IMG/VR virus record: IMGVR_UViG_3300010412_000010
Location: 14,463-78,462 of that record
Source: a virus
Taxonomy: Duplodnaviria > Heunggongvirae > Uroviricota > Caudoviricetes
DNA length: 64,000 nt
Strand: one strand, 5' to 3'
The notes under the pieces are model-generated. The model was not told the DNA's origin and made no database searches. It was given only the letters and a program-made list of their open reading frames with translations. Below, piece after piece: positions 15,638 to 46,156 of this stretch; position 1 is the stretch's first letter; each line of letters begins with the position of its first letter. A program made the translations under genes and the position numbers.

Positions 15638-17212
15638 ATGCAAGTTTTCGGATACGACTTTAAGTTTCGAGTATCTAAAAAATCCACCGAAAAACAGGAC
15701 ATCGAATCTGTCAATATTTCTTTTGCTCCACCAAGAAAAGACGATGGTGCAATCGAAGTTCAAACAGACGGCGTTACTGCTGGCGGTGTCGTTTCCTCAT
15801 ATGTAAACATTGATGGCAGTGAGGCCAATAACCAAGACAGTTTGGTTAAGCGATATCGAAAAATGGCGCTTGTTGCTGAGGTGGATGAAGCAATTTCATA
15901 TATTGTAAATGACGCTATTACTATTGGGTCTGTTTTGAAGCCAGTCGACATTGTGCTTGATGGCGTCGATTTGTCGGATGGCGTGAAGAAAAAGATTCGC
16001 GAAGAGCATGATTATATCATGTCATTGCTTGGTTTTTCGTCAAAAGGATATGATATTTTCCGAGAGTTTTACATCGACGGAAGAATTCTTTATCACCAAA
16101 TCAAGGACGAAAAGGGAACAAAACTCGTTGAATTGCGTCGCCTAGACCCACTACACCTTAAGAAGGTTCGTGAAGTTATTAAGAAAAGAACCGAATCTGG
16201 CGTCGAAGTTGTTTCTGGTTATCGCGAATACTACATTTACAACAACCCAACACAGTTCAGATACGGAAGTACCGGACAGGCCGTTATTATTGCACCAGAA
16301 GAGATTATCAATGTTACTTCTGGTTTGATGGATGCCGAAAAGAAACTTGTGTTGAGTCATTTACACAAAGCAATCAAGCCACTGAATAACCTTACCCGAC
16401 TGGAAGACGCCACCGTCATCTATCGCCTCGCGCGCGCGCCTGAGCGAAGATTATTTTATCTGGATGTTGGTAACCTGCCAAAGACAAAGGCAGAGCAATA
16501 TGTGGCCGACATGATGAACAAATACAAGACCAAGATGGTATATAACGCCGTCACTGGTGAGGTTGACAACGACCACGATTACATGTCAATGCTTGAAGAT
16601 TTTTGGTTACCCCGCCGTGAGGGGGGAAAGGGTACTGAGATTTCGACGCTTCAGGGCGGAACCAGTCTTGGTGAAATTGATGATGTGATTTACATGCAGA
16701 AAAAACTGTATAAATCGCTGAATGTACCTATCACAAGATTAGAACCAGAAAACTCAATTTCGTTGGGACGCGCGTCTGACATAACAAGAGACGAACTGAA
16801 ATTTTCAAAATTCATTGACAGGATGCGAAATCGTTTTAATGGACTGTTCTTACACGCGCTTCGCACACAGTTAATATTGAAAAAAATCATTAATGAAAAT
16901 GAGTGGAGCGCCATTTACGATAAGATTCAGTATGACTACATTCAAGATTTTTATATCACAGAAGAGAAAGATGCTGCCATCATGCAGGCTCGATTTGCGT
17001 TGATGGGTGATGCTGAACAATACATTGGCAAGTATTTCTCTGAAGAATGGGCACGGAAGAATGTACTGAGACAAACCGATGATGACATTGAAGAACAAGA
17101 CACAAAAATAGAAGAAGAACGAAAAGCCAAAGAAGCCGCTGGTGTTGCTGATGATAATACCGATGGTGGTTTTGGTGGAGACTCACAACAATTTGGGTTC
17201 GGAAATGAATAA
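15638..17212 (+). CDS. 20: portal vertex protein gp20
   Basis: 524 aa (T4 gp20 is also 524 aa); sits between gp19 and the prohead core/protease genes. Confidence 0.85.
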   Translation: MQVFGYDFKFRVSKKSTEKQDIESVNISFAPPRKDDGAIEVQTDGVTAGGVVSSYVNIDGSEANNQDSLVKRYRKMALVAEVDEAISYIVNDAITIGSVLKPVDIVLDGVDLSDGVKKKIREEHDYIMSLLGFSSKGYDIFREFYIDGRILYHQIKDEKGTKLVELRRLDPLHLKKVREVIKKRTESGVEVVSGYREYYIYNNPTQFRYGSTGQAVIIAPEEIINVTSGLMDAEKKLVLSHLHKAIKPLNNLTRLEDATVIYRLARAPERRLFYLDVGNLPKTKAEQYVADMMNKYKTKMVYNAVTGEVDNDHDYMSMLEDFWLPRREGGKGTEISTLQGGTSLGEIDDVIYMQKKLYKSLNVPITRLEPENSISLGRASDITRDELKFSKFIDRMRNRFNGLFLHALRTQLILKKIINENEWSAIYDKIQYDYIQDFYITEEKDAAIMQARFALMGDAEQYIGKYFSEEWARKNVLRQTDDDIEEQDTKIEEERKAKEAAGVADDNTDGGFGGDSQQFGFGNE

Positions 17213-17579
17213 CGCAATAGAAGAAGTCGCTTCACGGATATCTTGTATGGTTGAAGAAAGCAACCGAAGCAAAATTGAGTCGGATATCATTTTGAAACAG
17301 CTTGGACAAAACAAATTTATCACCATGACCGGCGCTAAACATTTGGCTTATGGTAGCGACAAGCGGGGAAACACCACGCTGAGTATGCAATTGATGCGCG
17401 GAAAAGATGGGATAAATTCATTAACCATTACCTATAACAAGGCAACAGACTCATATGATTTGACCTTTGCCAGAATTCATGGGTCGAACTACACGGTTAA
17501 AAAACAAGTCGATGGTGTGTATGCAGAAGACCTTCGCCGAGCCGTTTCTGATAACACCGGATTGGCACTAAGTCTCTAA
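17205..17579 (+). CDS. prohead core protein (gp67/68-like, by synteny)
   Basis: ATG at 17205 overlaps the portal stop; small protein between portal and prohead protease. Confidence 0.4.
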   Translation: MNNAIEEVASRISCMVEESNRSKIESDIILKQLGQNKFITMTGAKHLAYGSDKRGNTTLSMQLMRGKDGINSLTITYNKATDSYDLTFARIHGSNYTVKKQVDGVYAEDLRRAVSDNTGLALSL

Positions 17580-17582
17580 TTT

Positions 17583-17590
17583 TATAAATA
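17583..17590 (+). promoter_or_regulatory. late promoter motif TATAAATA upstream of the prohead core gene
   Basis: Exact motif 24 nt upstream of ATG 17614. Confidence 0.5.
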
Positions 17591-17613
17591 TTTCGAAACA
17601 CAGGAGAATCGCC

Positions 17614-18099
17614 ATGAGCGAAAAACAACATTCACCAGAATATGAACTCGTGACAAATATTCAGGACGGGAAGGTAGCAGAAAACAAAACACTGTTTTCG
17701 CAGGCTATTTCTACGAAAATTTTCGAAAAACTTGCCGCAAAAAAACAGGAAGTTTCTTCGTATTTTGTCGCCGAAGCCAAATCTACGGAAGATGATGATG
17801 ATGATATGGAAGATGATGATATGGAAGATGGCGAAGATGAGTGTTCTTGCGACGAAATCAGGGAATCCAAAGAAGACCCAATTCTGGCAAAAGTGGCGTC
17901 TGTTATTGGCGATGCCGCAATTGTCGATATGAGAAAACCACTGGAAGCTGCATACAAGAAATCAGCCGTTTCTTTTTCGTTCGAGCCATTTGCTCATTGG
18001 ACAATCAAACACAAAGGCAAAACCATCGTTATCACAAGCAAGAAATATGTTGATAATCCAGATTTGGTTCATGGTGCATTTGCAATCGGTTATCTGTAA
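17614..18099 (+). CDS. prohead core / internal head protein, acidic
   Basis: DDDDMEDDDMEDGEDE acidic stretch; preceded by a TATAAATA late-promoter motif. Confidence 0.4.
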   Translation: MSEKQHSPEYELVTNIQDGKVAENKTLFSQAISTKIFEKLAAKKQEVSSYFVAEAKSTEDDDDDMEDDDMEDGEDECSCDEIRESKEDPILAKVASVIGDAAIVDMRKPLEAAYKKSAVSFSFEPFAHWTIKHKGKTIVITSKKYVDNPDLVHGAFAIGYL

Positions 18100-18113
18100 T
18101 ACAGGAACCAACC

Positions 18114-18554
18114 ATGTCATTTGGGAAAGAATTGATTAAGCACATAGAAGAACGGAATTTCACAGATTTTGCTGACATGTTGTCAGAGAAACTATTTGAT
18201 GAAATTTCCGTGCTTATTGATGAAGAGCGAGAGTTTGAAACAAACAAACTACAGGAAGCAATTCGTCGACTGAATCGCGTAAGAAAGGGAAAAATTCAGC
18301 GCAATGTGAGGGTGTCTGATAAGGCGGGATTTACAATACGGGGCGGAAAGGAAGTTCGACTAAAAGCGACAGAAAGAAGAAAAAGAAGACTGGCTCGAAG
18401 AATAGCAAACAAGAAAATTAAAAGAAAACTTCGCACTGGAACATCGAAAATAAAAAGAAAGCGTTCAGTCATTAAGTCCAGACGCCTATCAAACTCCAGT
18501 GCAACACGCCGCGCATTATCGGCGAAACGAAAAAAACTAAGAGGACGAAGATGA
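18114..18554 (+). CDS. prohead core / internal protein, highly basic C-terminus
   Basis: RRKRRLARRIANKKIKRKLRTGTSKIKRKR tail; lies upstream of gp21. Confidence 0.4.
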   Translation: MSFGKELIKHIEERNFTDFADMLSEKLFDEISVLIDEEREFETNKLQEAIRRLNRVRKGKIQRNVRVSDKAGFTIRGGKEVRLKATERRKRRLARRIANKKIKRKLRTGTSKIKRKRSVIKSRRLSNSSATRRALSAKRKKLRGRR

Positions 18555-19219
18555 TGAAACTTATTACCGAATTAACCGAAGATGTTTCTTATCTAGTAGA
18601 AGAGAAAAACGGCAAAAAGGATTTTTTCATCGAAGGTATTTTCTTGCAGGCCAATATAAAAAATCGCAATGGTCGTATATATCCATCTGCGATTATGGAG
18701 CGTGAAGTAAATAGGTATATCGCCGAACAGGTAAACCAGAATCGCGCTTATGGCGAACTTGGTCACCCAAACACACCAACAATTAACCTAGATAGGGTAT
18801 CCCACCGAATTGTTGAGTTGCGAAAGGACGGCGACAACTATATCGGAAAAGCAAAAATTTCATCATCACCATCCGGCCAAATTGCTCGCGGCTTGATGGA
18901 AGATGGTGGTCGTCTTGGTGTTTCTTCGCGCGGATTGGGTAGCTTAAAAGAGGTTAATGGTGTCCACGAAGTGCAGTCGGATTTCATGCTAAACACCGCT
19001 GGGGATATCGTTGCTGACCCGTCTGCCCCAGATGCATATGTTCGTGGAATCATGGAAGGACGCGAGTGGGTGTGGAATAACGGCTTGCTGAAAGAGGTTG
19101 AAATTGACAATCACCGCAAACAAATCAACGCCGCTGCTGGGTCTGTAAAACCAGCAAAACTCGAAGAAACAATGATACTCGTATTTGAAGATTTTCTTCA
19201 AAAAATACACAAAATTTAA
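18551..19219 (+). CDS. 21: prohead core protein and protease gp21
   Basis: NGKKDFFIEGIFLQANIKNRNGRIYP...GELGHP...RLGVSSRG matches T4 gp21 NGKKNYYIEGVFLQADIKNRNGRIYP...GELDHP...VLGVSSRG. Confidence 0.88.
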   Translation: MMKLITELTEDVSYLVEEKNGKKDFFIEGIFLQANIKNRNGRIYPSAIMEREVNRYIAEQVNQNRAYGELGHPNTPTINLDRVSHRIVELRKDGDNYIGKAKISSSPSGQIARGLMEDGGRLGVSSRGLGSLKEVNGVHEVQSDFMLNTAGDIVADPSAPDAYVRGIMEGREWVWNNGLLKEVEIDNHRKQINAAAGSVKPAKLEETMILVFEDFLQKIHKI

Positions 19220-19223
19220 GATT

Positions 19224-19231
19224 TATAAATA
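19224..19231 (+). promoter_or_regulatory. late promoter motif TATAAATA upstream of gp22
   Basis: Exact motif 11 nt upstream of ATG 19242. Confidence 0.5.
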
Positions 19232-19241
19232 ACTATCATAG

Positions 19242-20099
19242 ATGGCTCTAACCGACTTTAAGTCTTGCAAAGAGGAAATTGAAATGTCAGTAAAAGACGA
19301 AACTCAAATTGAAGAAACCGTTGGTATTACCGCTCTTTTTGACGGTCAAGACCTAACAGAAGAAACCAAGGACAAGATTACTACTATCTTCGAAGCGGTT
19401 GTTTCTGAGAAAGTAAAATCAATCCAAGAGGAAACTGTTGCGCGTCTTGAAGAAGAATATGCAACCAAATTGGAAGAACAAGTCGAGTTAATCCGCGAAA
19501 ATTTGGCAAGTGATGTTGATACCTATACAACATTTGTTGCTGAACAGTGGATGGAACAGAACAAATTGGCTGTTGAGCAAGGCATTCGTACCGAAATTGC
19601 GGAGAGTTTTATTTCTGGCTTGAAGGGCCTGTTCGAACAACACAACATCCAGCTTCCAGAAGAAAAAACCGATGTTATGGTTGAACTTGCAACCAAGATT
19701 GCTGAACTGGAAGATAGCTTGGAAGAACAAATTACTACCAATGCCATTCTGAGCAAAAATTCAAAAGAATTGAAAAAACAACTGAAAATCAACGACCTGA
19801 AAGAAGGCATGGTTGCTACCGATGCGGAACGCCTTGCATCACTTCTTGAAGATGTTGATTTCGAAGATGAAGACAGTTTCATTAAAAAGGCCACCACGAT
19901 TAAAGAGGGGCTTTTTATTGTTTCTTCTGAAACCAATGGTTCGATTGACAGTGAAGTTGACGACTCATTGATTAAGGAAGAAAACGCCGGTTCAGACAAG
20001 CCTTCAAAGATTGAAAGCACTGCATACGACGGCGATATGGCTGCGCTGATTGCTGGGTTCAGCCGAGTTATTGGCAATAGCAAGCAAACCAAAGCGTAA
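19242..20099 (+). CDS. 22: prohead scaffold protein gp22
   Basis: Glu-rich coiled coil; LAVEQGIRTEIAESFISGLKGLFEQHNIQLPEE resembles T4 gp22 LAVDKGIKAELFESMLGGLKELFVEHNVVVPEE. Confidence 0.85.
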   Translation: MALTDFKSCKEEIEMSVKDETQIEETVGITALFDGQDLTEETKDKITTIFEAVVSEKVKSIQEETVARLEEEYATKLEEQVELIRENLASDVDTYTTFVAEQWMEQNKLAVEQGIRTEIAESFISGLKGLFEQHNIQLPEEKTDVMVELATKIAELEDSLEEQITTNAILSKNSKELKKQLKINDLKEGMVATDAERLASLLEDVDFEDEDSFIKKATTIKEGLFIVSSETNGSIDSEVDDSLIKEENAGSDKPSKIESTAYDGDMAALIAGFSRVIGNSKQTKA

Positions 20100-20111
20100 A
20101 AATTTGATTTT

Positions 20112-20119
20112 CATAAATA
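20112..20119 (+). promoter_or_regulatory. late promoter-like motif CATAAATA upstream of gp23
   Basis: Near-consensus motif about 38 nt upstream of the gp23 ATG. Confidence 0.35.
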
Positions 20120-20156
20120 ATTAAAACGGTTAAGAAAACCACTTAAGGAGCAAAAC

Positions 20157-21479
20157 ATGTATCTGTCAGAAGATATCAAGAAAAAATGGCAGCCTATCGT
20201 TGAGCACGAAGCTCTTCCGAAAATTGAAGACCCGTACCGCAAGGCTGTTACCACTATCGTTCTTGAAAACCAAGCACGATTCACCAAAGAAAAAACTGGC
20301 CGCGAGTTGATGGTTGAAGCGACTTCTTCAGACGCTAACAATGTGACCGCTGGTGTTGACAAGTATGACCCAGTATTGGTGTCATTGGTTCGTCGTTCAA
20401 CTCCAAACTTGTTGGCGTTTGATGTTGCTGGTGTACAGCCAATGTCTGGCCCAACTGGTCTGTTGTTCGCTATCCGTGCTCGTTACACCAACCAATCTGG
20501 TGGTGAAGCGCTGTTCGGCGAAGCCAACACAGCACACTCTGGTACTGGCACTCACGCCGGTGACACTTCTGGTTTCCCAGCCGACTTCTTCGGTGTTGGT
20601 GACCCAGCAGTAGGAACCGACAAGGGTGTTGGTATGGATGTGGCTGTTGGTGAAGCAAAAGGTACTGATTCTGGTACCGCGTTCAACCAAATGGCATTCA
20701 CTATTGAAAAAACTTCAGTTGAAGCGAAAACTCGCGCTCTGAAAGCTGAATACACCACTGAACTTGCACAAGACTTGCGCGCTATTCACGGTCTTGACGC
20801 TGAAAACGAATTGGCAAATATTCTGTCTACCGAAATTCTGGCAGAACAGAACCGTGAACTGATTCGTACTATCAACATTTCCGCTAAGTACGGATTTGGT
20901 GGTACTGGTTCATTCGATGCGGCTTCAACCGTATCTGGTGGTGACGCTGATGGTCGTTGGTTCGTAGAACGCTTCAAAGCTGTTCTGTTCCAAATCGAAC
21001 TTGAAGCAAACGAGATTGCCAAATCAACCCGTCGTGGTCGTGGTAACTTCGTAATCACTTCAAGCAATGTGGCTTCTGCTTTGGCAATGGCTGGTATTCT
21101 GGACTACGCTCCGGCAATGTCAACCAACCTGCAAGTAGACGATACTGGCAACCTGTTTGCTGGTGTTATCAACGGCAGAATCAAAGTGTATGTTGACCCA
21201 TACGCGACAATCGACTATGTAACCGTTGGTTACCGTGGTTCGAACCAGTTTGACGCTGGTATCTTCTGGGCACCGTATGTACCGCTTGAAATGGTACGCG
21301 CGGTCGGTGAAGACAGCTTCCAGCCAAAAATTGGTTTCAAAACCCGTTATGGTATCGTGGCCAACCCGTTTGCTACCATTGTTGACCCAATTGCGGGTAC
21401 ACCAGTAGGTGGTCAGAGCGGTCTGGGTGCCGGACAGAACTTCTACTACCGTAAGTTCCGCGTCCTGAACCTAATCTAA
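20157..21479 (+). CDS. 23: major capsid protein gp23
   Basis: KWQPIVEHEALPKI and NLLAFDVAGVQPMSGPTGLLFAIRARY resemble T4 gp23 KWKPLLEGEGLPEI and NLIAFDICGVQPMNSPTGQVFALRAVY; strong terminator downstream. Confidence 0.95.
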   Translation: MYLSEDIKKKWQPIVEHEALPKIEDPYRKAVTTIVLENQARFTKEKTGRELMVEATSSDANNVTAGVDKYDPVLVSLVRRSTPNLLAFDVAGVQPMSGPTGLLFAIRARYTNQSGGEALFGEANTAHSGTGTHAGDTSGFPADFFGVGDPAVGTDKGVGMDVAVGEAKGTDSGTAFNQMAFTIEKTSVEAKTRALKAEYTTELAQDLRAIHGLDAENELANILSTEILAEQNRELIRTINISAKYGFGGTGSFDAASTVSGGDADGRWFVERFKAVLFQIELEANEIAKSTRRGRGNFVITSSNVASALAMAGILDYAPAMSTNLQVDDTGNLFAGVINGRIKVYVDPYATIDYVTVGYRGSNQFDAGIFWAPYVPLEMVRAVGEDSFQPKIGFKTRYGIVANPFATIVDPIAGTPVGGQSGLGAGQNFYYRKFRVLNLI

Positions 21480-37488: not shown

Positions 37489-37507
37489 AATTATGGGTTG
37501 TTAAATA

Positions 37508-37592: not shown

Positions 37593-37611
37593 ACTTTATC
37601 AAGAGGATGTT

Positions 37612-38252: not shown

Positions 38253-38269
38253 TAACACGGATTTATATT

Positions 38270-38779
38270 ATGCCCATGAAAGAAGTTGATTTTGATGTTG
38301 CAGAAATCAGAAAGGCGATTGAAGAAAGCACTGAAACCACTTCGATATATGTTGGTGCCGATTCAAAAAAATGTAGGGACAATGTTGTTTATGCGACAGT
38401 TGTTGTTTTGCATTTTGACTCCAAGCATGGTGGAAAGATTTTCAAGGACATTAAAATCGAACCGTATTATGGAAGCGTTCGGCAGAAATTGATGTTCGAA
38501 GTATACAAGGCTGCTGATATCGCATATAAAATCATGGATGTTGTTGGTGCTCGCAGGTTTCAGATTCATTTGGATTTGAACCCAAACAAAGACCAGTTAA
38601 GCAACATTGTTGTGAAAGAGGCGACTGGTTATATTCTGGGTACTGTTGGGTTTGCGCCAACATTGAAACCGGACGCGTTTGCTGCATCCACTGCTGCTGA
38701 TGAATTTGCAGTAAAGAATGCTAAATTTGGTAGGAAGTTTTTCAGGAAAAGGCGAAATAAAAAAAATCATGGTGGTTGA
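38270..38779 (+). CDS. hypothetical protein
   Basis: Start trimmed to ATG 38270 to clear the tRNA; basic C-terminus. Confidence 0.4.
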   Translation: MPMKEVDFDVAEIRKAIEESTETTSIYVGADSKKCRDNVVYATVVVLHFDSKHGGKIFKDIKIEPYYGSVRQKLMFEVYKAADIAYKIMDVVGARRFQIHLDLNPNKDQLSNIVVKEATGYILGTVGFAPTLKPDAFAASTAADEFAVKNAKFGRKFFRKRRNKKNHGG

Positions 38780-38785
38780 TATTAT

Positions 38786-40420
38786 ATGAGCAAAAAACGA
38801 CCAAATCATTGCGGAAAGCCGATGCATTTGCACGATACAAACAAACATGGTAGACAACGATACCGTTGTGCTGTTTGTAAAACGAGCATGATTGAGAACC
38901 GAAGCGAAGAGCATACTCATGGTTATGATGTTGATTTGGCCAATGACAATGCCAAGAAGATTCAGTTGCTTGTTAAGAAAAACAAGCACAATAAGTTCGT
39001 CATTACTTCCGCGATAAACAATACCGAGGCTTGGCAGGATTATCTGCTATCCCTACAGAAATATTGCGACCACAACAATGCAACTCTTATTATTGTTCCT
39101 GTTCCATACAAAAATGTAACCGCATTCTCCAGCAACAAAGAAAGAAAAAAGTGGTGGGATGATTCCATCGTTCCTTTCTTCGTTGACGATGACATCTATC
39201 TTGGTGGTAATATCATGCTCATGGCCGGTACCAGAATTGGTGCTACTATGGCCAATCCGTTGTCGGGGAAGGCCGCTATTGGTGGACACAGGTGGACTAT
39301 TTTTGCGCATCCGCAGTTGGCGTTGGAGCCGGTTGCTACTCCTATAAACACCATGCCAAAAAAGATGTATACGACTGGCGCGGTTACTGTTAAGAATTAT
39401 TCGCGAACAAACGAGGGCAAAAAGGCCGAGTTTCATCATGTGATGGGTGCAATTGTTGTTGAGACAATTGGTGATTCACATTCGTTTGTTCGTCAATTGA
39501 ATGCTGGTGATGATGGTAGTTTTTATGATTTGGAATATCACTACACCCCAAGAGGTGCCAAGAAATACGACCATATTGAAGTGTTGGCGCCTGGAGACGA
39601 ACATGCAAAGTTCGTGTTGGATTCTGTAAAGCGAGCCACATATTCAAATAGAGATAGTATCGTTAATACGCTAAAACCAAGAATGATTGTTCGAAATGAT
39701 ATTTTGGATGGGTATGCCGGAAGCCACCATCACGCGAAAGACCCGATGTTGCAATTCAAAAAGTTTCACAATGATGATGATAACTATCGGAAAGAACTTG
39801 ACCAGTGCGTCGCGTATGTGAATGAGACGACGCCGAATTATGCGGTTTCTGTTTTTGTTGCATCCAACCACCACGACCATTTAACAAAATGGCTTAATAC
39901 TGTCGACCCAAATAAAGACCACAAAAATGCACTATTAATATCGGAATTGAATGTTGCTGTAAGACAGGCGATTCTGGAAGATAGAGACTACGACCCATTC
40001 AGGTTGTATTTGGAACCAAGGCTGACATGCAAAAATAAGTTTTTGAGTCGGAATGAGCGGTTTGTTGTTGGTGAGGTTGATTACTCTCAACACGGCGATG
40101 TTGGGGTAAATGGCGCAAAAGGTAACGCGCGCGGTTTGGCAAACACATGCGCTAAGATGGTTATTGGGCATTCGCATGGCGCGAGAATCGTGAAAGGTGT
40201 GTATCAGACAGGAACCAGTACCGGAAGCTTGGAATATGAAAAGGGGTTGGGTGACCATTCCAACACACATTGCATCCAATACCCAAATGGCAAGCGATGT
40301 TTGATTGATATTATTGATGGGCAATGGCGACACACCAAACGAACCGAGACACAAAGAAAGAATAAAATCAAAAAAAAGACGATTGACAGGCGAAAAAAAG
40401 TCGCTACAATACATAAATAA
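38786..40420 (+). CDS. N-terminal zinc-ribbon protein with C-terminal calcineurin-like metallophosphoesterase-like motifs
   Basis: CGKPMHLH...RYRCAVCKT zinc ribbon; downstream APGDEH, ASNHHDH, IGHSHG motifs resemble MPE motifs I-V. Confidence 0.45.
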   Translation: MSKKRPNHCGKPMHLHDTNKHGRQRYRCAVCKTSMIENRSEEHTHGYDVDLANDNAKKIQLLVKKNKHNKFVITSAINNTEAWQDYLLSLQKYCDHNNATLIIVPVPYKNVTAFSSNKERKKWWDDSIVPFFVDDDIYLGGNIMLMAGTRIGATMANPLSGKAAIGGHRWTIFAHPQLALEPVATPINTMPKKMYTTGAVTVKNYSRTNEGKKAEFHHVMGAIVVETIGDSHSFVRQLNAGDDGSFYDLEYHYTPRGAKKYDHIEVLAPGDEHAKFVLDSVKRATYSNRDSIVNTLKPRMIVRNDILDGYAGSHHHAKDPMLQFKKFHNDDDNYRKELDQCVAYVNETTPNYAVSVFVASNHHDHLTKWLNTVDPNKDHKNALLISELNVAVRQAILEDRDYDPFRLYLEPRLTCKNKFLSRNERFVVGEVDYSQHGDVGVNGAKGNARGLANTCAKMVIGHSHGARIVKGVYQTGTSTGSLEYEKGLGDHSNTHCIQYPNGKRCLIDIIDGQWRHTKRTETQRKNKIKKKTIDRRKKVATIHK

Positions 40421-40431
40421 TTTTTGTTTGT

Positions 40432-40507
40432 GGGTAGGTAGCTCAGTAGGTAGAGCACTTGTTTGAAGCACAAGGTGTCGACAGTTCAATTCTGTCCCTG
40501 CCCACCA
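40432..40507 (+). tRNA. tRNA-Phe (GAA)
   Basis: Canonical D arm; anticodon arm cttgt-ttGAAgc-acaag; T arm gacag-ttcaatt-ctgtc; CCA. Confidence 0.8.
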
Positions 40508-40512
40508 ATTAT

Positions 40513-40589
40513 GTCGCTGTAGCTCAGTTGAATAGAGCAATTGCCTTCTAAGCAATCGGTCGTAGGTTTGAGTCCTACCAGCGACGCCA
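40513..40589 (+). tRNA. tRNA-Arg (TCT)
   Basis: Near-duplicate of the Arg(TCG) gene body; anticodon loop ctTCTaa; CCA. Confidence 0.8.
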
Positions 40590-40596
40590 TATTAAT

Positions 40597-40673
40597 GGGC
40601 AGGTGATGGAATTGGCATACATGTTGCGCTTAGAACGCAAATTTTAAGGGTTCGAGTCCCTTCTTGCCCACCA
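40597..40673 (+). tRNA. class-I tRNA with anticodon TAG (Leu codon CUA), irregular D arm
   Basis: Acceptor gggcagg/cttgccc; anticodon arm ttgcg-ctTAGaa-cgcaa; T arm aaggg-ttcgagt-ccctt; CCA; D stem poorly paired. Confidence 0.5.
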
Positions 40674-40690
40674 TTTATATCATCTATGTC

Positions 40691-40768
40691 GTCTAGTTGA
40701 TGGGAATTGGTATACCTCCTTTCCTCAAAAGTAAGGGCTTCTTGGTTCGAGTCCAAGACTAGACACCA
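40691..40768 (+). tRNA. tRNA-like gene with aberrant 11-nt anticodon loop (possible pseudo-tRNA)
   Basis: Perfect acceptor gtctagt/actagac and T arm cttgg-ttcgagt-ccaag with CCA, but anticodon stem tcctt/aaggg encloses tcctcaaaagt. Confidence 0.35.
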
Positions 40769-40772
40769 TTTT

Positions 40773-40850
40773 GGGCTGGTAGAGAATTGGAATATCGGTC
40801 AGACTTAAAATTTGGCGTCATTGTGGGTTCGATGCCCACCCAGCCTACCA
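40773..40850 (+). tRNA. class-I tRNA with anticodon TAA (Leu codon UUA), 7-nt variable loop
   Basis: Acceptor gggctgg/ccagcct; anticodon arm tcaga-ctTAAaa-tttgg (two G-U pairs); T arm gtggg-ttcgatg-cccac; CCA. Confidence 0.5.
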
Positions 40851-40880
40851 TTGTTGTTGTACTATTATTTGGAGATTTTT

Positions 40881-41282
40881 ATGAATGACAAACATGCTGA
40901 ACATGTAAATGTTGATGAAAAAGAGGCTGATGAACTTTCATATGAAGGCGGGCGAAGAAGCGCTCAATTTGTTGGCGGATTCAGACAGGCGATAAAAACT
41001 CAAACATATTACATGGGCGATTTGAATGCCCAAGCAAAATTGCTGGTTTCTCAGTTGGATGAATACAACATGCTTGCTTCATATCACGGTGCTCCAACTG
41101 TTGATGTGCGAAAGGCGTTGGTTTTTTTGGAAAATCGGGTTGCGCGGTTTTATGGATTGAAAAATAAATACAACGGTAACGGAAGTCTTCGTGAGCGAGT
41201 TGAGAGTGTGTTGTTGAAAAGTATTGACGAAGAAATCGAAAGAACACAGCAGGAAATGGCCGACATTGAGTCGGATGTTTGA
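40881..41282 (+). CDS. hypothetical protein
   Basis: ATG 40881 preceded by GGAG; the upstream in-frame extension would overlap a tRNA. Confidence 0.4.
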   Translation: MNDKHAEHVNVDEKEADELSYEGGRRSAQFVGGFRQAIKTQTYYMGDLNAQAKLLVSQLDEYNMLASYHGAPTVDVRKALVFLENRVARFYGLKNKYNGNGSLRERVESVLLKSIDEEIERTQQEMADIESDV

Positions 41283-41290
41283 AATAATTT

Positions 41291-41375
41291 GGGGGTTCGT
41301 CGGAGTGGGAGAGCCGAGTCGGACTGTAAATTCGATGTGAAAGCTGAGTAGGTTCGAATCCTACAGCCCCCACCA
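41291..41375 (+). tRNA. tRNA-Tyr (GTA)
   Basis: Type II, 85 nt; anticodon arm tcgga-ctGTAaa-ttcga; T arm gtagg-ttcgaat-cctac; CCA. Confidence 0.8.
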
Positions 41376-41390
41376 AAAAAGGTATATAGC

Positions 41391-41636
41391 ATGAACGAGT
41401 CGTTGATTGTTGACTTGGAAAAGGCGGTTAGGGTTGTTCATTCGTGCGATACGGAAGAACAATGCATGGTTGCTGCAAGATGGATTAGTAGATTCATTGA
41501 CAAATGCAAATTGCTCAATCTTGATTATAATGACAGGACATATGTTGATTTTTTTGTTTATTCTTTGCGAGACCAGTTGTCCGATAGAATCACGACATTT
41601 CGGATTAAAGCCGGACAAACAAATTTCTCCGAATAG
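41391..41636 (+). CDS. hypothetical protein
   Basis: 81-aa ORF between tRNAs. Confidence 0.35.
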   Translation: MNESLIVDLEKAVRVVHSCDTEEQCMVAARWISRFIDKCKLLNLDYNDRTYVDFFVYSLRDQLSDRITTFRIKAGQTNFSE

Positions 41637-41724
41637 GAAGCGTGGTAGAGTGGTTAATACAATGGATTGCTAATCCATGAACCTGTATGGGTTCCGACGG
41701 TTCGAATCCGTCCGCTTCCGCCAC
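41637..41724 (+). tRNA. tRNA-Ser (GCT)
   Basis: Type II, 88 nt; anticodon arm atgga-ttGCTaa-tccat; T arm cgacg-gttcgaat-ccgtc; G73; CCA. Confidence 0.8.
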
Positions 41725-41739
41725 ATAAATACAAATATG

Positions 41740-41813
41740 CGGGCTAGCCCAAGGTGGGTCACCGGCCTTCCAAGCCGTGTAGGGTGGGTTTCGATTACCC
41801 CAGTCCGCTCCAG
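41740..41813 (+). tRNA. tRNA-Gly (TCC)
   Basis: 74 nt; acceptor gcgggct/agtccgc resembles E. coli Gly2; anticodon loop ctTCCaa; short D arm; CCA. Confidence 0.65.
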
Positions 41814-41818
41814 TTTTG

Positions 41819-41894
41819 CCCGTGTAGCTCAGTTGTTAGAGCATCCCATTGGTATTGGGAAGGTCGTAGGTTAGACTCCTATCATGGGCACCAG
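41819..41894 (+). tRNA. tRNA-Thr (GGT), unusual T-loop (ttagact)
   Basis: Canonical D arm tagctcagttgttagagca; anticodon arm tccca-ttGGTat-tggga; CCA. Confidence 0.65.
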
Positions 41895-41899
41895 TTATG

Positions 41900-41976
41900 C
41901 GGGTATATCTCAGTTGGCTAGAGCGATTGCTTGCCAAGCAATAGGTCGTGAGTTCGAGTCTCACTACCCGCTCCAA
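41900..41976 (+). tRNA. tRNA-Gly (GCC)
   Basis: Anticodon arm attgc-ttGCCaa-gcaat; T arm gtgag-ttcgagt-ctcac; CCA. Confidence 0.8.
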
Positions 41977-41977
41977 A

Positions 41978-42811
41978 TCACCGATACATGATTGTAGTTT
42001 TCGCCTTATTGAATTTACCAGCACCACGACGAAGGTCTTTGATATTTTTATTCTTGTTTCTGTTTTTTGATGCGTTTGCTAAGTTAAAAATCTTCTTGCT
42101 GTATTCCAAGTCTCGTTTTTTGATGTCCGCGTCATAGTCTTTCAGTGAACGATATTTCGTGTAGATTTTGTGTGCTTCTTCTTTCCATGCCCATAGTTTT
42201 TTTGTCATCACCTGTACTTCTGCGATGATATCACCCACAACAATTTTGAAATGATGTGAGCCACGATAGCCATATTCTGGGTCTGCTTTTTCGTCTTTGT
42301 ATTCATATGATTGAACAACCGCGCGTTTTTTTAGACGCTTTACCACATCCAGCACATCGTGTTTTTCTGGAACAAGAATGGCACCACGCAACACATCGTG
42401 AATTTGTTTTGGGTCTTTTCCGCGATTAACCGCTTTGTCAATAAACGAATCGAGTGATTTGAAATCGACGAGAATTTTCGTGTTGTTTGGTGAAACTGCT
42501 TTCAATAGCCGCGAATATGTTTTTTCGGCTTCTAGTGCCTTTTCATGCGCTTGTAACCATGCGGATTCCGCAGACGAACGCCTTTCCTCTTCGGTGTCGC
42601 CACTAATTCCTTGCCATGGCTGATATCCCGCTAATCTGGCTGGGTCTGTTGATGTGCGCTGTGCTGCACCAGAAACTTCGTCCAGTTCATATTGTTCCAC
42701 GACATGTTCCACGGAGTCTAGCCCGACGATAAAGTCCAATTCCTCGGTCAAATCGAACATATCGGTCAATATTTTCTTATTAATATCAATTACTTGCGAT
42801 AATGATTTCAT
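41978..42811 (-). CDS. RelA/SpoT-homologue small alarmone synthetase (SAS / toxSAS-like nucleotidyltransferase)
   Basis: Synthetase motifs IHDVLRGAILV and GYRGSHHFKIVVGDIIAEVQVMTKKLWAWKEEAHKIY (compare GYRSLH...EVQIRT...W); start trimmed to ATG 42811. One of only two minus-strand genes. Confidence 0.7.
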   Translation of the reverse strand: MKSLSQVIDINKKILTDMFDLTEELDFIVGLDSVEHVVEQYELDEVSGAAQRTSTDPARLAGYQPWQGISGDTEEERRSSAESAWLQAHEKALEAEKTYSRLLKAVSPNNTKILVDFKSLDSFIDKAVNRGKDPKQIHDVLRGAILVPEKHDVLDVVKRLKKRAVVQSYEYKDEKADPEYGYRGSHHFKIVVGDIIAEVQVMTKKLWAWKEEAHKIYTKYRSLKDYDADIKKRDLEYSKKIFNLANASKNRNKNKNIKDLRRGAGKFNKAKTTIMYR

Positions 42812-42845
42812 TTTATTGTCTCGAATAAATACCAACGGTCTATTT

Positions 42846-42853
42846 TATTTATA
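42846..42853 (-). promoter_or_regulatory. T4-type late promoter motif TATAAATA on the minus strand, upstream of the SAS gene
   Basis: Reverse complement of tatttata at 42846-42853, about 35 nt upstream of the SAS ATG. Confidence 0.35.
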
Positions 42854-42855
42854 GG

Positions 42856-42884
42856 TTGACTTTATTAGAACTATTCTGTATATT
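42856..42884 (+). promoter_or_regulatory. sigma70-like promoter (TTGACT-17-TATATT) for the alarmone hydrolase gene
   Basis: Near-consensus -35 and -10 elements with a 17-bp spacer, about 25 nt upstream of the RBS GGAG and ATG 42909. Confidence 0.55.
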
Positions 42885-42908
42885 TATTCGTGGTTGTTGG
42901 AGAAAAAG

Positions 42909-43391
42909 ATGAATAAGTTGATTGGTTCAAATCTTGTGTTCGATGAGGCGATGTATCTTGCTGCCATAGCGCATAACGGAAGTGTTGATTTGGGTGGTGC
43001 GCCGTACATTCTTCACCCGATTCGCGTCGCGGCCAGTTTGTTGGTCGTTTGGCCGTATGATTACGAACTGGCCGCAATCGGGTTGTTGCATGATGTTGTT
43101 GAAGACACCAATATGACCTTTGAGGATTTGGAAAAAATTGGGTTTTCTCCCCGTGTTGTCGATGCTCTTCGTGCGTTGACCCACAAAAAAGGTGTTCCGT
43201 ATGATGCCTACATTGACGACCTGATTGCTACCAAGAACTGGTCTGCGATTGCGGTAAAACTGGCTGATTTGAAAGATAATGCCAATTTGAGCCGTCTTGG
43301 GAATAATGTTGGTGCCGCTGATATCAAGCGTACTGAGAAATATATTCGTGCGATTGCGAAAATCGAAGCATTGGATATTGTCGATATGTAA
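42909..43391 (+). CDS. HD-domain (p)ppGpp hydrolase (small alarmone hydrolase, SpoT/Mesh1-like)
   Basis: YILHPIRVAASLL...AAIGLLHDVVEDT...FSPRVVDALRALT matches the SpoT hydrolase HD signature (HP..VA.IL...AALLHDVIEDT). Confidence 0.8.
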   Translation: MNKLIGSNLVFDEAMYLAAIAHNGSVDLGGAPYILHPIRVAASLLVVWPYDYELAAIGLLHDVVEDTNMTFEDLEKIGFSPRVVDALRALTHKKGVPYDAYIDDLIATKNWSAIAVKLADLKDNANLSRLGNNVGAADIKRTEKYIRAIAKIEALDIVDM

Positions 43392-43421
43392 AAAAAAATC
43401 ATATTTGATGAAAAAAAACCA

Positions 43422-43450
43422 TTGACAATCGTATAAATAGCACTTAGAAT
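43422..43450 (+). promoter_or_regulatory. strong sigma70-like promoter (TTGACA-17-TAGAAT); a late motif TATAAATA is embedded in the spacer (43432-43439)
   Basis: Consensus -35 and near-consensus -10; no CDS follows for about 0.9 kb. Confidence 0.55.
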
Positions 43451-43457
43451 GTGCGAA

Positions 43458-44357
43458 TGTTTTTGGGGCATAGCCCAGATAACCAATCGTAAGGTTGGGA
43501 AAGGTGTGAAGTCAACATAACACCACCTTCGCAAGAAGGCCAATCTATGCAAGCCGAGGAAGTAGTACCTAGTGTGCCATGCATACTAGGAACGGATGAA
43601 ACAAGAGGTAAAAGTCAGTGCAATAATCAAAGACTGGCCAGCAAAGAATGGGGACATTTGATGCTACCTGTATCCAACTTGTGAACCGTATTTCCGAAGG
43701 GTAGGGTGGATAGTGAGAGTTTTAGCGGACAATTGCACCATCCAGTTTACGAGGTTGCTTTGTCATATCGACAAAGAATCTTGAAAAACGGTATGAGTAT
43801 TCTTAGCGGAAGAAAATACAGGGGGCGCGTTGTATTTTGTGGTTCAAAAGACCATGAAGCAACCGGAAGCGCGCGTCCTAGTTGATACGATATAGCCGAA
43901 TGGTACGGCATCAGCCTTCTAAGCTGACGATTGGTGGTTCGATTCCATCTATTGTTTACAAAAGCAAAGACGCTTCCGGTGTCAGATGAAAATGACTTAA
44001 GCCCGTGCGCGCAAGCGAACGCGGGAAGTCCAAGGCTCGCAAGGCTGCGGATTTTTAAGGTGTAGTTGCACGGAACCGAAGCACGGTTTGTAGCCCGCAA
44101 GGCTGACGGTAAACGAAACTTTGAGAAGTCTGGCACGACAAGAGAACCGCCACTCTTCAAAAAAGGCAGTCATGGAGAAATAGATATTTGGGCGAAAGCT
44201 GGGTATCTGGATAAGACTTTAACACTGGCAGCAACCAGTTGGTACGGAGTCGAAAGTTTCTTCAAGTGAGGGTGTAATCTCAGCCCAAACCAAATATTCG
44301 CATGGTGATTGGAAAACTGGATTACTGAATAGTACCGACAGTCACCAGCCGAATATT
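43458..44357 (+). ncRNA. promoter-driven structured non-coding region (candidate stable RNA(s); RNase P RNA-like motifs in 43981-44357)
   Basis: No plausible + strand ORF; multiple GNRA-type hairpins; contains a tRNA-like element. Motifs gggaagtccaaggctcgc, gacggtaaacg, cacgacaagagaaccgcc, agcccaaaccaaata and acagtcaccagccgaata resemble RNase P RNA conserved regions I, III, IV and V in the correct order. Confidence 0.3.
43886..43957 (+). tRNA. tRNA-like element (Arg TCT-type anticodon), no encoded CCA, 1:72 mismatch
   Basis: D arm gccg-aatggta-cggc; anticodon arm tcagc-ctTCTaa-gctga; T arm ggtgg-ttcgatt-ccatc; flanked by 10-bp inverted repeats accggaagcg (43862-71) and cgcttccggt (43971-80). 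Confidence 0.35.
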
Positions 44358-44358
44358 T

Positions 44359-44435
44359 GCCCTAGAAACTTTTAGTTGGATGAAGCAGTGCCTTGTAAGC
44401 ACTGGAAGCAGGTTCGATTCCTGACTGGGGCACCA
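44359..44435 (+). tRNA. tRNA-Thr (TGT)
   Basis: Acceptor gccctag/ctggggc; anticodon arm agtgc-ctTGTaa-gcact; T-loop ttcgatt; CCA. Confidence 0.7.
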
Positions 44436-44449
44436 ACTAAATAATATTG

Positions 44450-44528
44450 TGGTAGGTATATTTTAATTGGCGAAAAATCCGGAATGTGACTCCGGCCATT
44501 GTCGGTTCGAATCCGACTACCTACCCCA
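44450..44528 (+). tRNA. tRNA-His (GTG) with encoded G-1
   Basis: G-1 opposite C73; D arm tttt-aattggcg-aaaa; anticodon arm ccgga-atGTGac-tccgg; T arm gtcgg-ttcgaat-ccgac; CCA. Confidence 0.8.
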
Positions 44529-44534
44529 CAACTC

Positions 44535-44609
44535 CAGTCGGTAGCTCCAATGGTAGAGCGGCGGTCTCCAAAACCGCATGTTGTAGGTTCGAGTCCTACC
44601 CGGCTGGCC
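44535..44609 (+). tRNA. tRNA-Trp (CCA)
   Basis: Anticodon arm gcggt-ctCCAaa-accgc; T arm gtagg-ttcgagt-cctac; CCA. Confidence 0.8.
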
Positions 44610-44616
44610 AAATGAA

Positions 44617-44693
44617 TAGCCCCGTAGCTCAACTGGCTAGAGCATCGGCCTTTGAAGTCGTGTGTTATTGGTTCGAATCCAATCGGGGTTGCC
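44617..44693 (+). tRNA. tRNA-Gln (TTG)
   Basis: Canonical D arm; anticodon loop ctTTGaa (4-bp stem with a G-U pair); T arm attgg-ttcgaat-ccaat; CCA. Confidence 0.7.
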
Positions 44694-44698
44694 AGTTT

Positions 44699-44776
44699 TC
44701 GGGGTGTAGCACAGTCTGGCCAGTGCGCTTGCTTTGGGAGTAAGATGTCGGGAGTTCGAATCTCTCCACCCCGACC
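44699..44776 (+). tRNA. tRNA-Pro (TGG)
   Basis: Anticodon arm cttgc-ttTGGga-gtaag; T arm gggag-ttcgaat-ctctc; CCA. Confidence 0.8.
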
Positions 44777-44969
44777 AATTTGTTGTAACAGTAGTAATAG
44801 TATTGAGTGGAAATGAATGGTTTTTTCAGAACAGTCAAATACAAATCGTTGCGAACAATTGTCAGATATAACAATCTTGACAGCTATGCTCGTTCCGATT
44901 TGTATCATGTAATCGGAATATTTGTTGGTTCCGTTGCGTTGATTTGTCTTGCGTTTATGGTGTGATTTT

Positions 44970-45045
44970 GCGGGGTAGTTCAGTGGTCAGAATAGTTGGC
45001 TCATAACCAAAAGGCCGGTGGTTCGAATCCACCCTCCGCAACCAG
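44970..45045 (+). tRNA. tRNA with CAT anticodon (second Met, or Ile2 after lysidine modification)
   Basis: Acceptor tgcgggg/ctccgca; anticodon arm gttgg-ctCATaa-ccaaa; T arm ggtgg-ttcgaat-ccacc; CCA. Confidence 0.7.
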
Positions 45046-45400: not shown

Positions 45401-46156
45401 TTGGAGGTTCATATGAGAACATTGCGGGAAGTAAAAAATACACCACAAGAGTTGGCAGAAGAGTTTGGTGCTCTTTTGGAAGCGTCATTTTCTCGATTAT
45501 TTCAGCATTTCCAAGAGCGTCCGATTGGTATTATTACTGCATTCCGTCGTTGTAACACGCGGGAAAAAAACCGTGAGCGGAATCGGGTTCTTGCAAAAGA
45601 ATTGCGCGCTGCTGGGTATGGGTTTATCCGAGCGCATGGCTATTATCCGGAAACTGGCGATGATGGCGAAAAGAAAAAGCGCGAAGAGGTTTTTATTGTT
45701 GTTGGTGATGTTGAAGACGCGGATGGTTCCAAACTACAAAAAAAACTAACCCATCTTGGGTATAAATGGAACCAAGATTCTGTATTCATAAAGCCAGCCA
45801 ATAGCGACAATGCCAAGCTGGTTGGTACCCAAGACATTGACAGGGATTGTAAAGTTGGTGAGCCTGTGTGGCCAGGACGAAACAAGGTCGCTAGGCTTGG
45901 GAAATGGGAACCAAATAAAATCGGCCTGTTCTATTCCAAAATGACCGGCAGGACTTTCGTGTTTACTTTGTTGGATGATGGTGAGGTGGTTGAGGAATTG
46001 GATTTGACTGGTCGTGTATATTCCGATTCGTCCATGTTTGGTGCGTGGGCAAAACACCTTATTGAGAATTGCGGACATAAGGTATACACGGAAGAAGAAT
46101 ATGACGCAATTCTAGCCAAGGAAAGGGCGGAAAAGCAGAAACACCAGAGCGGTTAA
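45401..46156 (+). CDS. hypothetical protein
   Basis: 251-aa ORF, no family recognised. Confidence 0.4.
   Translation: MEVHMRTLREVKNTPQELAEEFGALLEASFSRLFQHFQERPIGIITAFRRCNTREKNRERNRVLAKELRAAGYGFIRAHGYYPETGDDGEKKKREEVFIVVGDVEDADGSKLQKKLTHLGYKWNQDSVFIKPANSDNAKLVGTQDIDRDCKVGEPVWPGRNKVARLGKWEPNKIGLFYSKMTGRTFVFTLLDDGEVVEELDLTGRVYSDSSMFGAWAKHLIENCGHKVYTEEEYDAILAKERAEKQKHQSG

Follow-up and report, generated by a model that had tools for sequence, protein, structure and literature searches.

A divergent RelA/SpoT-type synthetase and Aph1-type hydrolase in the tRNA island of a T4-like phage: a possible injected head protein and its antidote

A synthetase and a hydrolase back to back

The subject of this analysis is a pair of divergent genes in a 64,000-nucleotide stretch of viral DNA, called the window below (IMG/VR record IMGVR_UViG_3300010412_000010, positions 14,463 to 78,462), whose annotated surrounding genes give its identity as a T4-superfamily myovirus: tail sheath, a gp46-like nuclease subunit, a gp43-type DNA polymerase and head genes. 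The minus-strand member is a stand-alone RelA/SpoT homologue (RSH) synthetase, or small alarmone synthetase (SAS), and the plus-strand member a small alarmone hydrolase (SAH). An earlier note, made from the letters of this DNA, had drawn attention to the two open reading frames (ORFs), of 277 and 160 aa, and to the 97-bp gap between them (42812-42908), and all three are there. The explanation preferred here, tentatively and at somewhat less than even chances, is that the SAS is made late as an internal head protein and injected together with the DNA, and that the SAH, which would not be packaged, is its antidote. The pair and its parts are:

41978..42811, minus strand: stand-alone RSH synthetase (SAS), 277 aa, ATG start, of a clade found almost only in phages (phrog_37685)
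42782..42811, minus strand: SAS codons 1-10, MKSLSQVIDI, resembling the T4 capsid targeting sequence (CTS)
42677..42751, minus strand: SAS codons 21-45, with three [LIV]-x-E sites (LTE23, VVE39, LDE45), candidates for prohead-protease cleavage
42074..42481, minus strand: catalytic SYNTH core, residues 111-246, with K118/S122/K126, D139, G-loop Y182 and E198-x-Q200 present
41981..42073, minus strand: basic C-terminal tail, residues 247-277, net charge +10, tail pI 11.6
42909..43391, plus strand: small alarmone hydrolase (SAH), 160 aa, Aph1 type (probable adenosine 3'-pyrophosphohydrolase), N-terminus MNKLIGSNLV

The ATG at 42811 is preferred as the SAS start because of public gene calls and the fit of MKSLSQVIDI to the CTS pattern; a TTG at 42835, which would give 285 aa, was rejected. 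In Pfam the protein scores 36.3 bits against RelA_SpoT (PF04607; gathering cut-off 27) over residues 118-219, with no second domain, and it matches PHROG family phrog_37685 (unknown function) at 1e-23; the motifs IHDVLRGAILV, GYRGSHHF and EVQVMTKKLWAWKEEAHKIY are all present. An AlphaFold2 model has a mean pLDDT of 84.7, with residues 61-250 mostly above 90 and residues 36-48 below 50, and its RSH nucleotidyltransferase fold, together with the above-cut-off profile match, places the SAS among RelA/SpoT synthetase domains. The whole protein has a pI of 9.2, and the family consensus stops at ...SKxxFxxGN, before the basic tail. The SAH matches Pfam HD_4 (PF13328) at 29.5 bits (cut-off 27.2) and phrog_990 (“metal-dependent phosphohydrolase”) at 8e-42, as well as TIGR00691 spoT_relA; PADLOC gives it a chance-level match only. 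It contains HPIRVAASLL and LLHDVVEDT, and its HD, ED and DxxN metal/catalytic motifs are intact. The earlier description of a neighbouring RSH synthetase and RSH-type HD hydrolase, each standing alone, thus holds, with both profiles above their Pfam cut-offs, every quoted motif found and no further domains in the profile search.

Active sites, family and linkage of the two enzymes

In an alignment of 94 family sequences, the catalytic residues of the SAS are fully or nearly invariant, and so are R142 and A144: K118 is found in 93, K126, D139, R142 and E198 in all 94, A144 in 89, and Y182 and Q200 in 93 each. K118/S122/K126 form the triphosphate clamp, D139 is the Mg residue and G181-Y182 belong to the G-loop; the catalytic Asp and Glu on which the earlier reading depended (D139 and E198) are retained. 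Their RelSeq equivalents are D264 (Mg-binding Asp), Y308 (G-loop) and E323 (the Glu of ExQ), and RelSeq R241 and R269, in motifs RxK and DxxGxR, form the donor-adenine arginine pair. That pair is missing here: across the 94 sequences, position 116 is occupied by D, N, G, Q, S or A, but by neither Arg nor Lys (it is D116 in the window), and the family has D139-x-x-R142-G-A144 (DxxRGA; DVLRGA in the window) where other RSH proteins have DxxGxR. The family is a divergent RSH clade, specific to phages, and in this alignment its donor site is remodelled.

A word-indexed search recovered only four relatives of the SAS; an exhaustive search recovered 280 clusters at E <=1e-3, mostly of 200-270 aa. 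They are carried by viral or metagenome contigs of 50-260 kb and by T4-superfamily isolates: Sinorhizobium phages PhiM12 and PhiN3 (gp279), PhiM7 and PhiM19, Desulfovibrio phage 7757, Paraglaciecola GD virus 1 and Variovorax V45v66. Bacterial and archaeal genomes (185,579 species, one genome each) yield a single match, on a contig of a metagenome-assembled genome (MAG). Because this distribution is almost wholly phage, the SAS family, as sampled by these searches, is not a chromosomal or prophage toxin-antitoxin family. Run against all PDB sequences, the family profile matches Rel, RelA, RelP and, weakly, Tas1, the closest solved relatives being the synthetase domains of long Rel/RelA proteins (M. 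tuberculosis Rel, E 1e-6); at E <=1 neither CapRel nor FaRel2 is matched among these sequences. PADLOC has no match for the SAS and NCBIfam nothing meaningful. By the PDB profile search, which covers CapRel and FaRel2, and by PADLOC, the SAS belongs to no validated subfamily of toxic small alarmone synthetases (toxSAS). Nor is it a MuF/SPP1 gp7 head-domain protein, Pfam giving only RelA_SpoT.

These results bear on one alternative, a resident toxin-antitoxin or superinfection-exclusion module of toxSAS and SAH that would act only inside the infected cell, with the SAH early, the SAS late and nothing packaged. Such SAS and SAH combinations have precedents in FaRel/ATfaRel and in PhRel gp29/gp30 (superinfection exclusion); the catalytic residues are intact, differing promoter motifs face the two genes, and a hydrolase adjoins the synthetase in many relatives. 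The family, however, is limited to large lytic-type phages, with essentially no members in bacterial genomes or prophages; it fits no validated toxSAS subfamily, the CapRel and FaRel2 result included; and there is no operon arrangement in the window, where a cognate-antitoxin operon of two or three genes is absent and the sole partner is divergent. A late-like motif faces the SAH too, and the module would leave the family-wide CTS-like N-terminus and L/I-x-E site, described below, unexplained. A resident module seems unlikely on this balance, if still deserving of an appreciable share of belief. The toxSAS-type pairing proposed earlier survives in part: neighbouring and fused relatives uphold a functional link, but neither a known toxSAS subfamily nor a toxin-antitoxin operon goes with it.

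The hydrolase had been taken for a SpoT/Mesh1-like (p)ppGpp hydrolase; it proves to be closest to Aph1, and it keeps residues tied to (p)ppApp specificity. Its best solved relative is 7SMG, “(p)ppApp hydrolase” (Aph1), at E 9.4e-20, with SAH residues 8-150 aligned to Aph1 5-139, as against E 1e-10 or worse for the hydrolase domains of Rel, SpoT and Mesh1, and the homology is full-length, including the C-terminal 53 residues that define the Aph1 family. Aph1 has a six-residue signature (D24, R96, D116, R119, K133, Y134), and its D24R/R119A double mutant acquires ppGpp hydrolysis because D24 occupies the place of the guanine-stacking Arg of Rel; of the Aph1 homologues assayed, 12/12 cleaved ppApp and just two had modest ppGpp activity (PMC10083569). 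The signature compares as follows:

Aph1 D24: SAH D27, kept
Aph1 R119: SAH R129, kept
Aph1 K133: SAH K144, kept
Aph1 Y134: SAH Y145, kept
Aph1 D116: SAH N126, changed
Aph1 R96: Asp in the SAH, not kept

The SAH thus holds four of the six residues, including both of those whose double mutation gives ppGpp hydrolysis. Because these specificity residues are kept, it is probably an adenosine 3'-pyrophosphohydrolase and not a (p)ppGpp hydrolase.

Profiles for synthetase, hydrolase and tRNAs were run over 62 related loci. In at least 14 distinct ones, a hydrolase lies no more than about 1 kb from the synthetase, and every arrangement occurs. The divergent one is peculiar to this phage; the genes are convergent in L018 and L003/L008, in tandem with the hydrolase upstream in L050, L053 and L058, and in tandem with the hydrolase downstream in L014, L024, L033, L036, L042, L059 and L062. 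There are also single-chain proteins in both domain orders, HD-SYNTH (P0018, P0029, P0053) and SYNTH-HD (P0040, P0071, P0122). Gene-calling artefacts were considered as a source of fusions: these six have no internal Met followed by a CTS; the apparent fusions P0010, P0151 and P0105 do retain an internal Met and then a CTS. Given this recurrent adjacency in all orientations and the true fusions, the comparative evidence is that synthetase and hydrolase are functionally linked. The Aph1 D24/R119/K133/Y134 signature is present in 17 of the 23 hydrolase domains adjacent or fused to the SAS family, among them all HD-SYNTH fusions, and adjacency, fusions and signature together argue that the product of the SAS family is an adenosine 3'-pyrophosphate, either (p)ppApp or tRNA-A76-PP.

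Two further alternatives can be weighed against the hydrolase and its linkage. One is a (p)ppGpp version, in which the pair would be a split mini-Rel raising and lowering host (p)ppGpp to steer the stringent response. Long Rel/RelA synthetase domains are, after all, the nearest solved relatives by profile, the HD-SYNTH fusions mimic the N-terminal architecture of Rel, and TIGR00691 spoT_relA matches the SAH. Yet the SAH and most of the family-linked hydrolases have Asp in place of the guanine-stacking Arg and retain Aph1 R119, the ppApp preference of the assayed Aph1 homologues points the other way, and the fusions are not simply inherited from Rel, because both domain orders exist; we think this version quite improbable. 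The other alternative treats the genes as independent, the SAH serving as a general anti-defence protein against host toxSAS or stringent-response restriction, a role already put forward for phage SAHs that stand alone, and being next to the SAS by accident. SAH homologues occur in 414 phage records and the synthetase in 11, phage SAHs neutralise all toxSAS enzymes tested, the synthetase and hydrolase genes of PhiM12 and PhiN3 are about 50 kb apart, and a nearby S-adenosylmethionine lyase shows that there are anti-defence genes in the island. Adjacency at 14 or more loci in all orientations, with single-chain fusions besides, is nevertheless hard to explain for unlinked genes, and independence is given very little credence.

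Other partners recur. The SAS is fused N-terminally to a ParB/Srx-like domain in P0002 and P0105, and to a HAD-like phosphatase domain with a DxDxT motif in P0065 and P0078; the latter is a third phosphohydrolase-type partner alongside the HD fusions. The gene directly after the synthetase encodes, in 14 of the 17 loci initially examined, a protein of unknown function some 128 aa long (phrog_24699); this gene is co-directional or convergent (L001 5551-5970, L002 5502-5897, L008 8547-8906, also L011-L016 and L019-L024). The protein could serve the SAS family as cognate neutraliser or partner. Its only Pfam match, DUF6934, is sub-threshold; the AlphaFold2 model has pLDDT 74.7, and Foldseek gives weak GNAT-like matches (E >=0.03, TM 0.38-0.45). 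Neither tblastn nor a profile search finds this partner in the 64-kb window, which resembles L018 in having the hydrolase without it; L008, L014 and L024 carry both. In L023, the synthetase and partner genes are followed, about 40 nt further downstream, by a permuted (alpha-type) tmRNA gene (9086-9422).

Head targeting, timing and the surrounding island

The first ten residues of T4 IPIII are its CTS, in which positions 4 and 7 set targeting and positions 8 and 10 processing, an Asp at position 10 stopping processing and not targeting (PMC9026906). Translated T4 genes begin MKTYQEFIAE (ipII, ipIII) and MKTFKEFTST (ipI). Members of the SAS family begin MKTFKEFITE, MKSFKEFITE, MKTFKEFLEE, MKSYQDFLEE, MKTLLEYIAE and similarly, with the consensus M-[KL]-[ST]-F-x-[EQ]-F-[LI]-x-E. 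Positions 4 and 7 are both hydrophobic or aromatic in 87 of 149 members, as against 12% at internal positions, and Glu10 is present in addition in 42 of 149 (28%, as against 1.3%). The strict pattern fits 30% of the family; among the remaining ORFs of these loci it fits about 2%, and those matches look like further internal-protein candidates.

A second shared feature is the protease site. T4 gp21 cuts after L/I-x-E (PMC9026906), and the window encodes both such a site in the SAS and a gp21-type prohead protease within its head module:

15638..21479, plus strand: T4-type head morphogenesis module (portal, core proteins, prohead protease, scaffold, major capsid protein)
18551-19219, plus strand: gp21-type prohead protease (phrog_207, 4e-78)

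The portal, scaffold and major head protein of this module match phrog_213 (1e-184), phrog_237 (6e-69) and phrog_138 (2e-142), respectively. The [LIV]-x-E sites of the window SAS fall in its acidic N-terminal 60 residues, a part that includes the low-pLDDT segment 36-48. At the column of E45, just before the catalytic domain, 85 of 90 sequences have Glu (alignment A1) and 81 of 90 also have a hydrophobic P3 ([LIVMF]-x-E); in the N-terminal SAS fusions, this conserved site sits at the domain junction. Neither the SAH nor the phrog_24699 partner begins with a CTS-like N-terminus. The CTS-like N-terminus and protease site of the SAS family point to virion delivery and not to resident toxin-antitoxin action, as far as sequence patterns can tell.

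Only one other real gene of the window fits a relaxed CTS pattern:

60734-61441, plus strand: ParB/Srx-like protein, 235 aa (...IIDGHHRF...), phrog_2859, with a canonical CTS, MKSFRQVIQE, followed by AGG

Six of its first ten residues are identical to those of the SAS, a late-like motif lies at 60694, 33 nt upstream, and a domain homologous to this protein is the one fused to the SAS in P0002 and P0105. Further CTS-like genes accompany the synthetase in other phages: L001 5980-7053 (MKSFKEYISEA..., 357 aa), L008 1200-2219 (MKKYSTFLLEAQ..., 339 aa, corresponding to a product with a precomputed DnaJ Pfam match, and similar in its N-terminal region to the L001 protein), L014 6729-7742 and L022 1137-3005. 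There are hints here of injected effector candidates clustered around the synthetase. In the literature searched, no paper joins the capsid targeting sequence with alarmones.

The promoter motifs of the intergenic region are:

42846-42853, minus strand: TATAAATA, T4 late-promoter-type, perfect, 35 nt upstream of the SAS ATG
42881-42888, minus strand: AATAAATA, a second late-like motif (sequence match) towards the SAS
42824-42831, plus strand: AATAAATA, late-like, towards the SAH, 78 nt upstream of its ATG
42856-42884, plus strand: TTGACT-17-TATATT, sigma70-like candidate (10/12 matches) towards the SAH

The window holds seven copies of TATAAATA, with 1.9 expected. The ATAAATA core occurs 25 times on the plus strand and four times on the minus strand (about 5.5 expected per strand), and of the four minus-strand copies, three immediately precede one or other of the two real minus-strand genes, the SAS having two of these; motifs of this late class also precede the sheath, portal, major capsid and scaffold genes. 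Because these strand-biased motifs lie ahead of structural and minus-strand genes, it is reasonable to regard the SAS as a late gene, and the T4 late-type motif reported earlier is where it was said to be.

The evidence on the SAH side is more equivocal. The sigma70-like site is present, and it is a promoter candidate only, because such sites are not enriched in the window as a whole (25, with 20 +/- 5 expected) and a 10/12 match is not significant alone. The four best sites (at least 11/12), at 35383, 37363 (12/12), 40383 and 43422, all lie immediately upstream of tRNA blocks or of a GOLLD RNA in the island, so that host-type promoters are plausibly in use there. A late-like NATAAATA is likewise found ahead of several tRNA blocks (30857, 35869, 40412, 41724). 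The idea of opposite promoter classes, with an early SAH and a late SAS, accordingly keeps its SAS half, and the picture is not a clean one, because a late-like AATAAATA also points to the SAH. The SAH may be made both early and late, which would suit an antidote needed in both phases.

Taken together, these features suggest the following sequence of events. The 277-aa SAS would be made late, from a T4-type late promoter; its CTS-like N-terminus would take it into the prohead scaffolding core, where it would probably be trimmed by the gp21-type protease at L/I-x-E; and it would be ejected with the DNA into the next host, like T4 Alt or the internal proteins. There it would move pyrophosphate from ATP to the 3'-OH of an adenosine-type acceptor, most likely ATP, ADP or AMP (giving (p)ppApp), alternatively A76 of tRNA CCA ends. 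The SAH, which has no targeting sequence, would remain cytoplasmic and strip the 3'-pyrophosphate, shielding the producing cell while the SAS builds up in late infection; early production of the SAH from a host-type promoter would also stop the effect of the injected enzyme once phage genes are expressed. We infer packaging, injection, expression timing, toxicity and acceptor identity from the features set out above.

Several observations tell against the injected-enzyme explanation and keep our preference for it tentative. The CTS of the window SAS is degenerate (Leu4, Val7 and Ile10, where T4 has Tyr/Phe4, Phe7 and Glu10; position 8 is Ile), and 62 of the 149 family members have no CTS pattern. 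The SYNTH-HD fusions would co-package the hydrolase, contrary to a scheme in which the antidote stays behind. Promoter assignments are motif matches, and the late-like motif facing the SAH does not help. The changes in the SAH at the positions of Aph1 D116 and R96 weaken the specificity argument, structure comparison gives no separation of (p)ppApp, (p)ppGpp and tRNA acceptors, and the remodelled donor site of the SAS (no Arg116; DxxRGA) makes altered chemistry possible. The phrog_24699 partner is absent from the window, and control of the enzyme may vary between phages.

The position of the pair raises the question of tRNA. As the earlier note had it, the pair lies inside an array of about 30 tRNA genes: ARAGORN finds 29, at 30885-45044 and all on the plus strand, which cover all 20 amino acids and encode the 3' CCA in 28 of 29. 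One possibility is that the SAS pyrophosphorylates host tRNA CCA ends, and that the phage tRNAs, with the SAH as a 3'-end repair enzyme, rebuild translation. FaRel2, CapRel and PhRel2 modify tRNA CCA ends in this manner, an adenosine-specific hydrolase would suit A76-PP, and some SAHs reverse tRNA pyrophosphorylation. The SAS is basic, with its +10 tail, and the RelP Lys that touches the acceptor 5' phosphates aligns with SAS Glu179, echoing the reduced basic patch of FaRel2. Besides the island itself, about 12 related loci have tRNAs no more than 8 kb from the synthetase, the PhiN3 neighbours include a tRNA nucleotidyltransferase (CCA-adding) and a peptidyl-tRNA hydrolase, and one relative has a tmRNA. 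Many relatives, however, have no nearby tRNA, and T4 internal-protein genes flank a tRNA cluster too, so the proximity may be inherited: in T4 (NC_000866 64000-79000), ipII and ipIII lie on one side of the cluster and ipI on the other, and by this analogy the position of the SAS in its tRNA island may reflect inherited genome architecture. On balance, a tRNA-directed pair is on the unlikely side.

A related proposal, which we hold to be improbable, keeps injection and changes the target: the SAS would be an injected tRNA 3'-end pyrophosphokinase blocking host aminoacylation within seconds, with the phage tRNAs and early SAH restoring translation and the fusions armed after packaging. The restoring tRNA set would be the CCA-encoding one described above, covering all 20 amino acids and expressed from consensus host-type promoters, and the prohead protease would sever the antidote domain of the HD-SYNTH fusions inside the capsid.

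The remainder of the island and the affinities of the phage can be summarized briefly. The SAS is, as previously remarked, one of two reverse-strand genes; a third candidate, an ORF at 63371-63790 on the minus strand, was rejected as low-complexity junk. The other credible gene and the GOLLD RNA are:

46153-46860, minus strand: gene of 235 aa, with no Pfam or PHROG match
43822-44286, plus strand: GOLLD RNA, full-length match to Rfam RF02032 (190.5 bits, gathering cut-off 150, E 1e-52)

The 46153-46860 gene has a late-like AATAAATA at 46887-46894, 27 nt upstream, and the N-terminal part of its product is acidic, with several L-x-E sites and without a clear capsid targeting sequence. The GOLLD RNA is directly downstream of the hydrolase gene. 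Nested in it is a tRNA-like Arg(tct) element (43885-43959), which alone among the 29 tRNAs does not encode its CCA; ahead of the GOLLD RNA is a promoter-like site, TTGACA-17-TAGAAT (43422-43450), which overlaps a TATAAATA, and the RNA may have its variable 5' half at 43455-43822. A search around the synthetase in 19 related loci turned up no GOLLD RNA, the adjacency being particular to this phage. The same island encodes a predicted S-adenosylmethionine lyase (45413-46156, plus strand; PF23780, 3.6e-11), of a class known for phage anti-restriction, an RNaseH-like protein (38216-38779) and an SPFH/Band 7 protein (31542-32522).

A near-identity DNA search (megablast) with 41500-44000 against 50,697 phage records gave no match. 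For the major capsid protein, no phage in the collection searched exceeds 57% identity, the best matches being those of Pseudomonas pf16, Stenotrophomonas DLP6, Methylophilales Melnitz and pelagiphages; these matches do not show the phage to be a cyanophage. The NCBI entry for a protein identical to the SAS is titled [quoted passage not shown]. Since the DNA of the window is clearly that of a T4-like phage, this looks like a phage contig binned by error into the archaeal MAG M11B2D.

Significance and comparison with known systems

Toxins of the alarmone type have been described in type VI secretion, in toxin-antitoxin and defence modules, and as MuF fusions of temperate phages. If the injected-enzyme explanation is true, large lytic T4-like phages deliver an alarmone-type enzyme by the internal-protein route and keep a (p)ppApp-type hydrolase as antidote, and RelA/SpoT chemistry joins the small list of enzymatic cargoes injected from T4-type heads, beside Alt. 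It would also place the Aph-type hydrolases of phages in a physiological context, define an RSH clade that is phage-specific and altered in its donor site, and account for a reversed gene with a late promoter within an otherwise early-looking tRNA and accessory island.

The tRNA-pyrophosphorylating enzymes FaRel2, CapRel-SJ46, PhRel and PhRel2 differ from the window SAS, which has no pseudo-zinc-finger antitoxin domain. The donor site of FaRel2 comprises R64, K66, S70, K74, D90, G93, R95, Y128, E145 and Q147, with R64 and R95 sandwiching the donor adenine (PMC11782079); these two arginines are replaced in the window SAS. SAHs neutralise every toxSAS tested (PMC7229694), and some remove pyrophosphate from tRNA. 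In the FaRel module of Cellulomonas marina, a (pp)pApp-forming SAS is neutralised both by an SAH and by a second, unrelated small protein (PMC7229694, PMC11782079). The row of SAS, phrog_24699 and SAH genes in L008, L014 and L024 recalls this three-gene FaRel/ATfaRel/AT2faRel module, as a resemblance only; FaRel belongs to a bacterial chromosomal toxin-antitoxin operon, whereas the window pair is divergent and lacks the second partner, and its SAS is no member of the FaRel subfamily by the tests run.

Closer in mode of delivery are the T4 internal proteins IPI, IPII and IPIII and the ADP-ribosyltransferase Alt, an injected, gp21-processed enzyme that modifies host machinery. Like the SAS, as predicted here, these are late proteins with a targeting peptide of about ten N-terminal residues and L/I-x-E gp21 sites, and the internal proteins are variable cargo whose genes lie in a plastic region around a tRNA cluster, as the SAS locus does. 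The differences are that no RSH domain was found among the described T4 cargoes, that the window SAS lacks Glu10, that we infer its packaging from sequence, and that the T4 internal proteins have no dedicated antidote gene.

The closest parallel in content is from a Bacteroides prophage, in which the immunity protein of MuF-Apk2, a fusion of head protein and (p)ppApp synthetase, is Aph1, and for which the authors raise co-injection as a possibility (PMC10083569). The Bacteroides caccae temperate phage and the window phage alike encode an RSH-fold pyrophosphokinase tied to the head (here as a proposal) and an Aph1-type hydrolase. They part in the nature of the tie, which in the window SAS, without a MuF domain, would be a short T4-type N-terminal peptide and a protease site; in the phage, a lytic-type T4-like myovirus and not a temperate siphovirus; and in the genes, which are divergent instead of tandem. 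The searchable literature yielded no description of the present combination: a phage RSH toxin with an SAH antidote is known in kind, and the T4-type CTS and protease signature, the phage-only clade with its altered donor site and the Aph1-type partner set this one apart.

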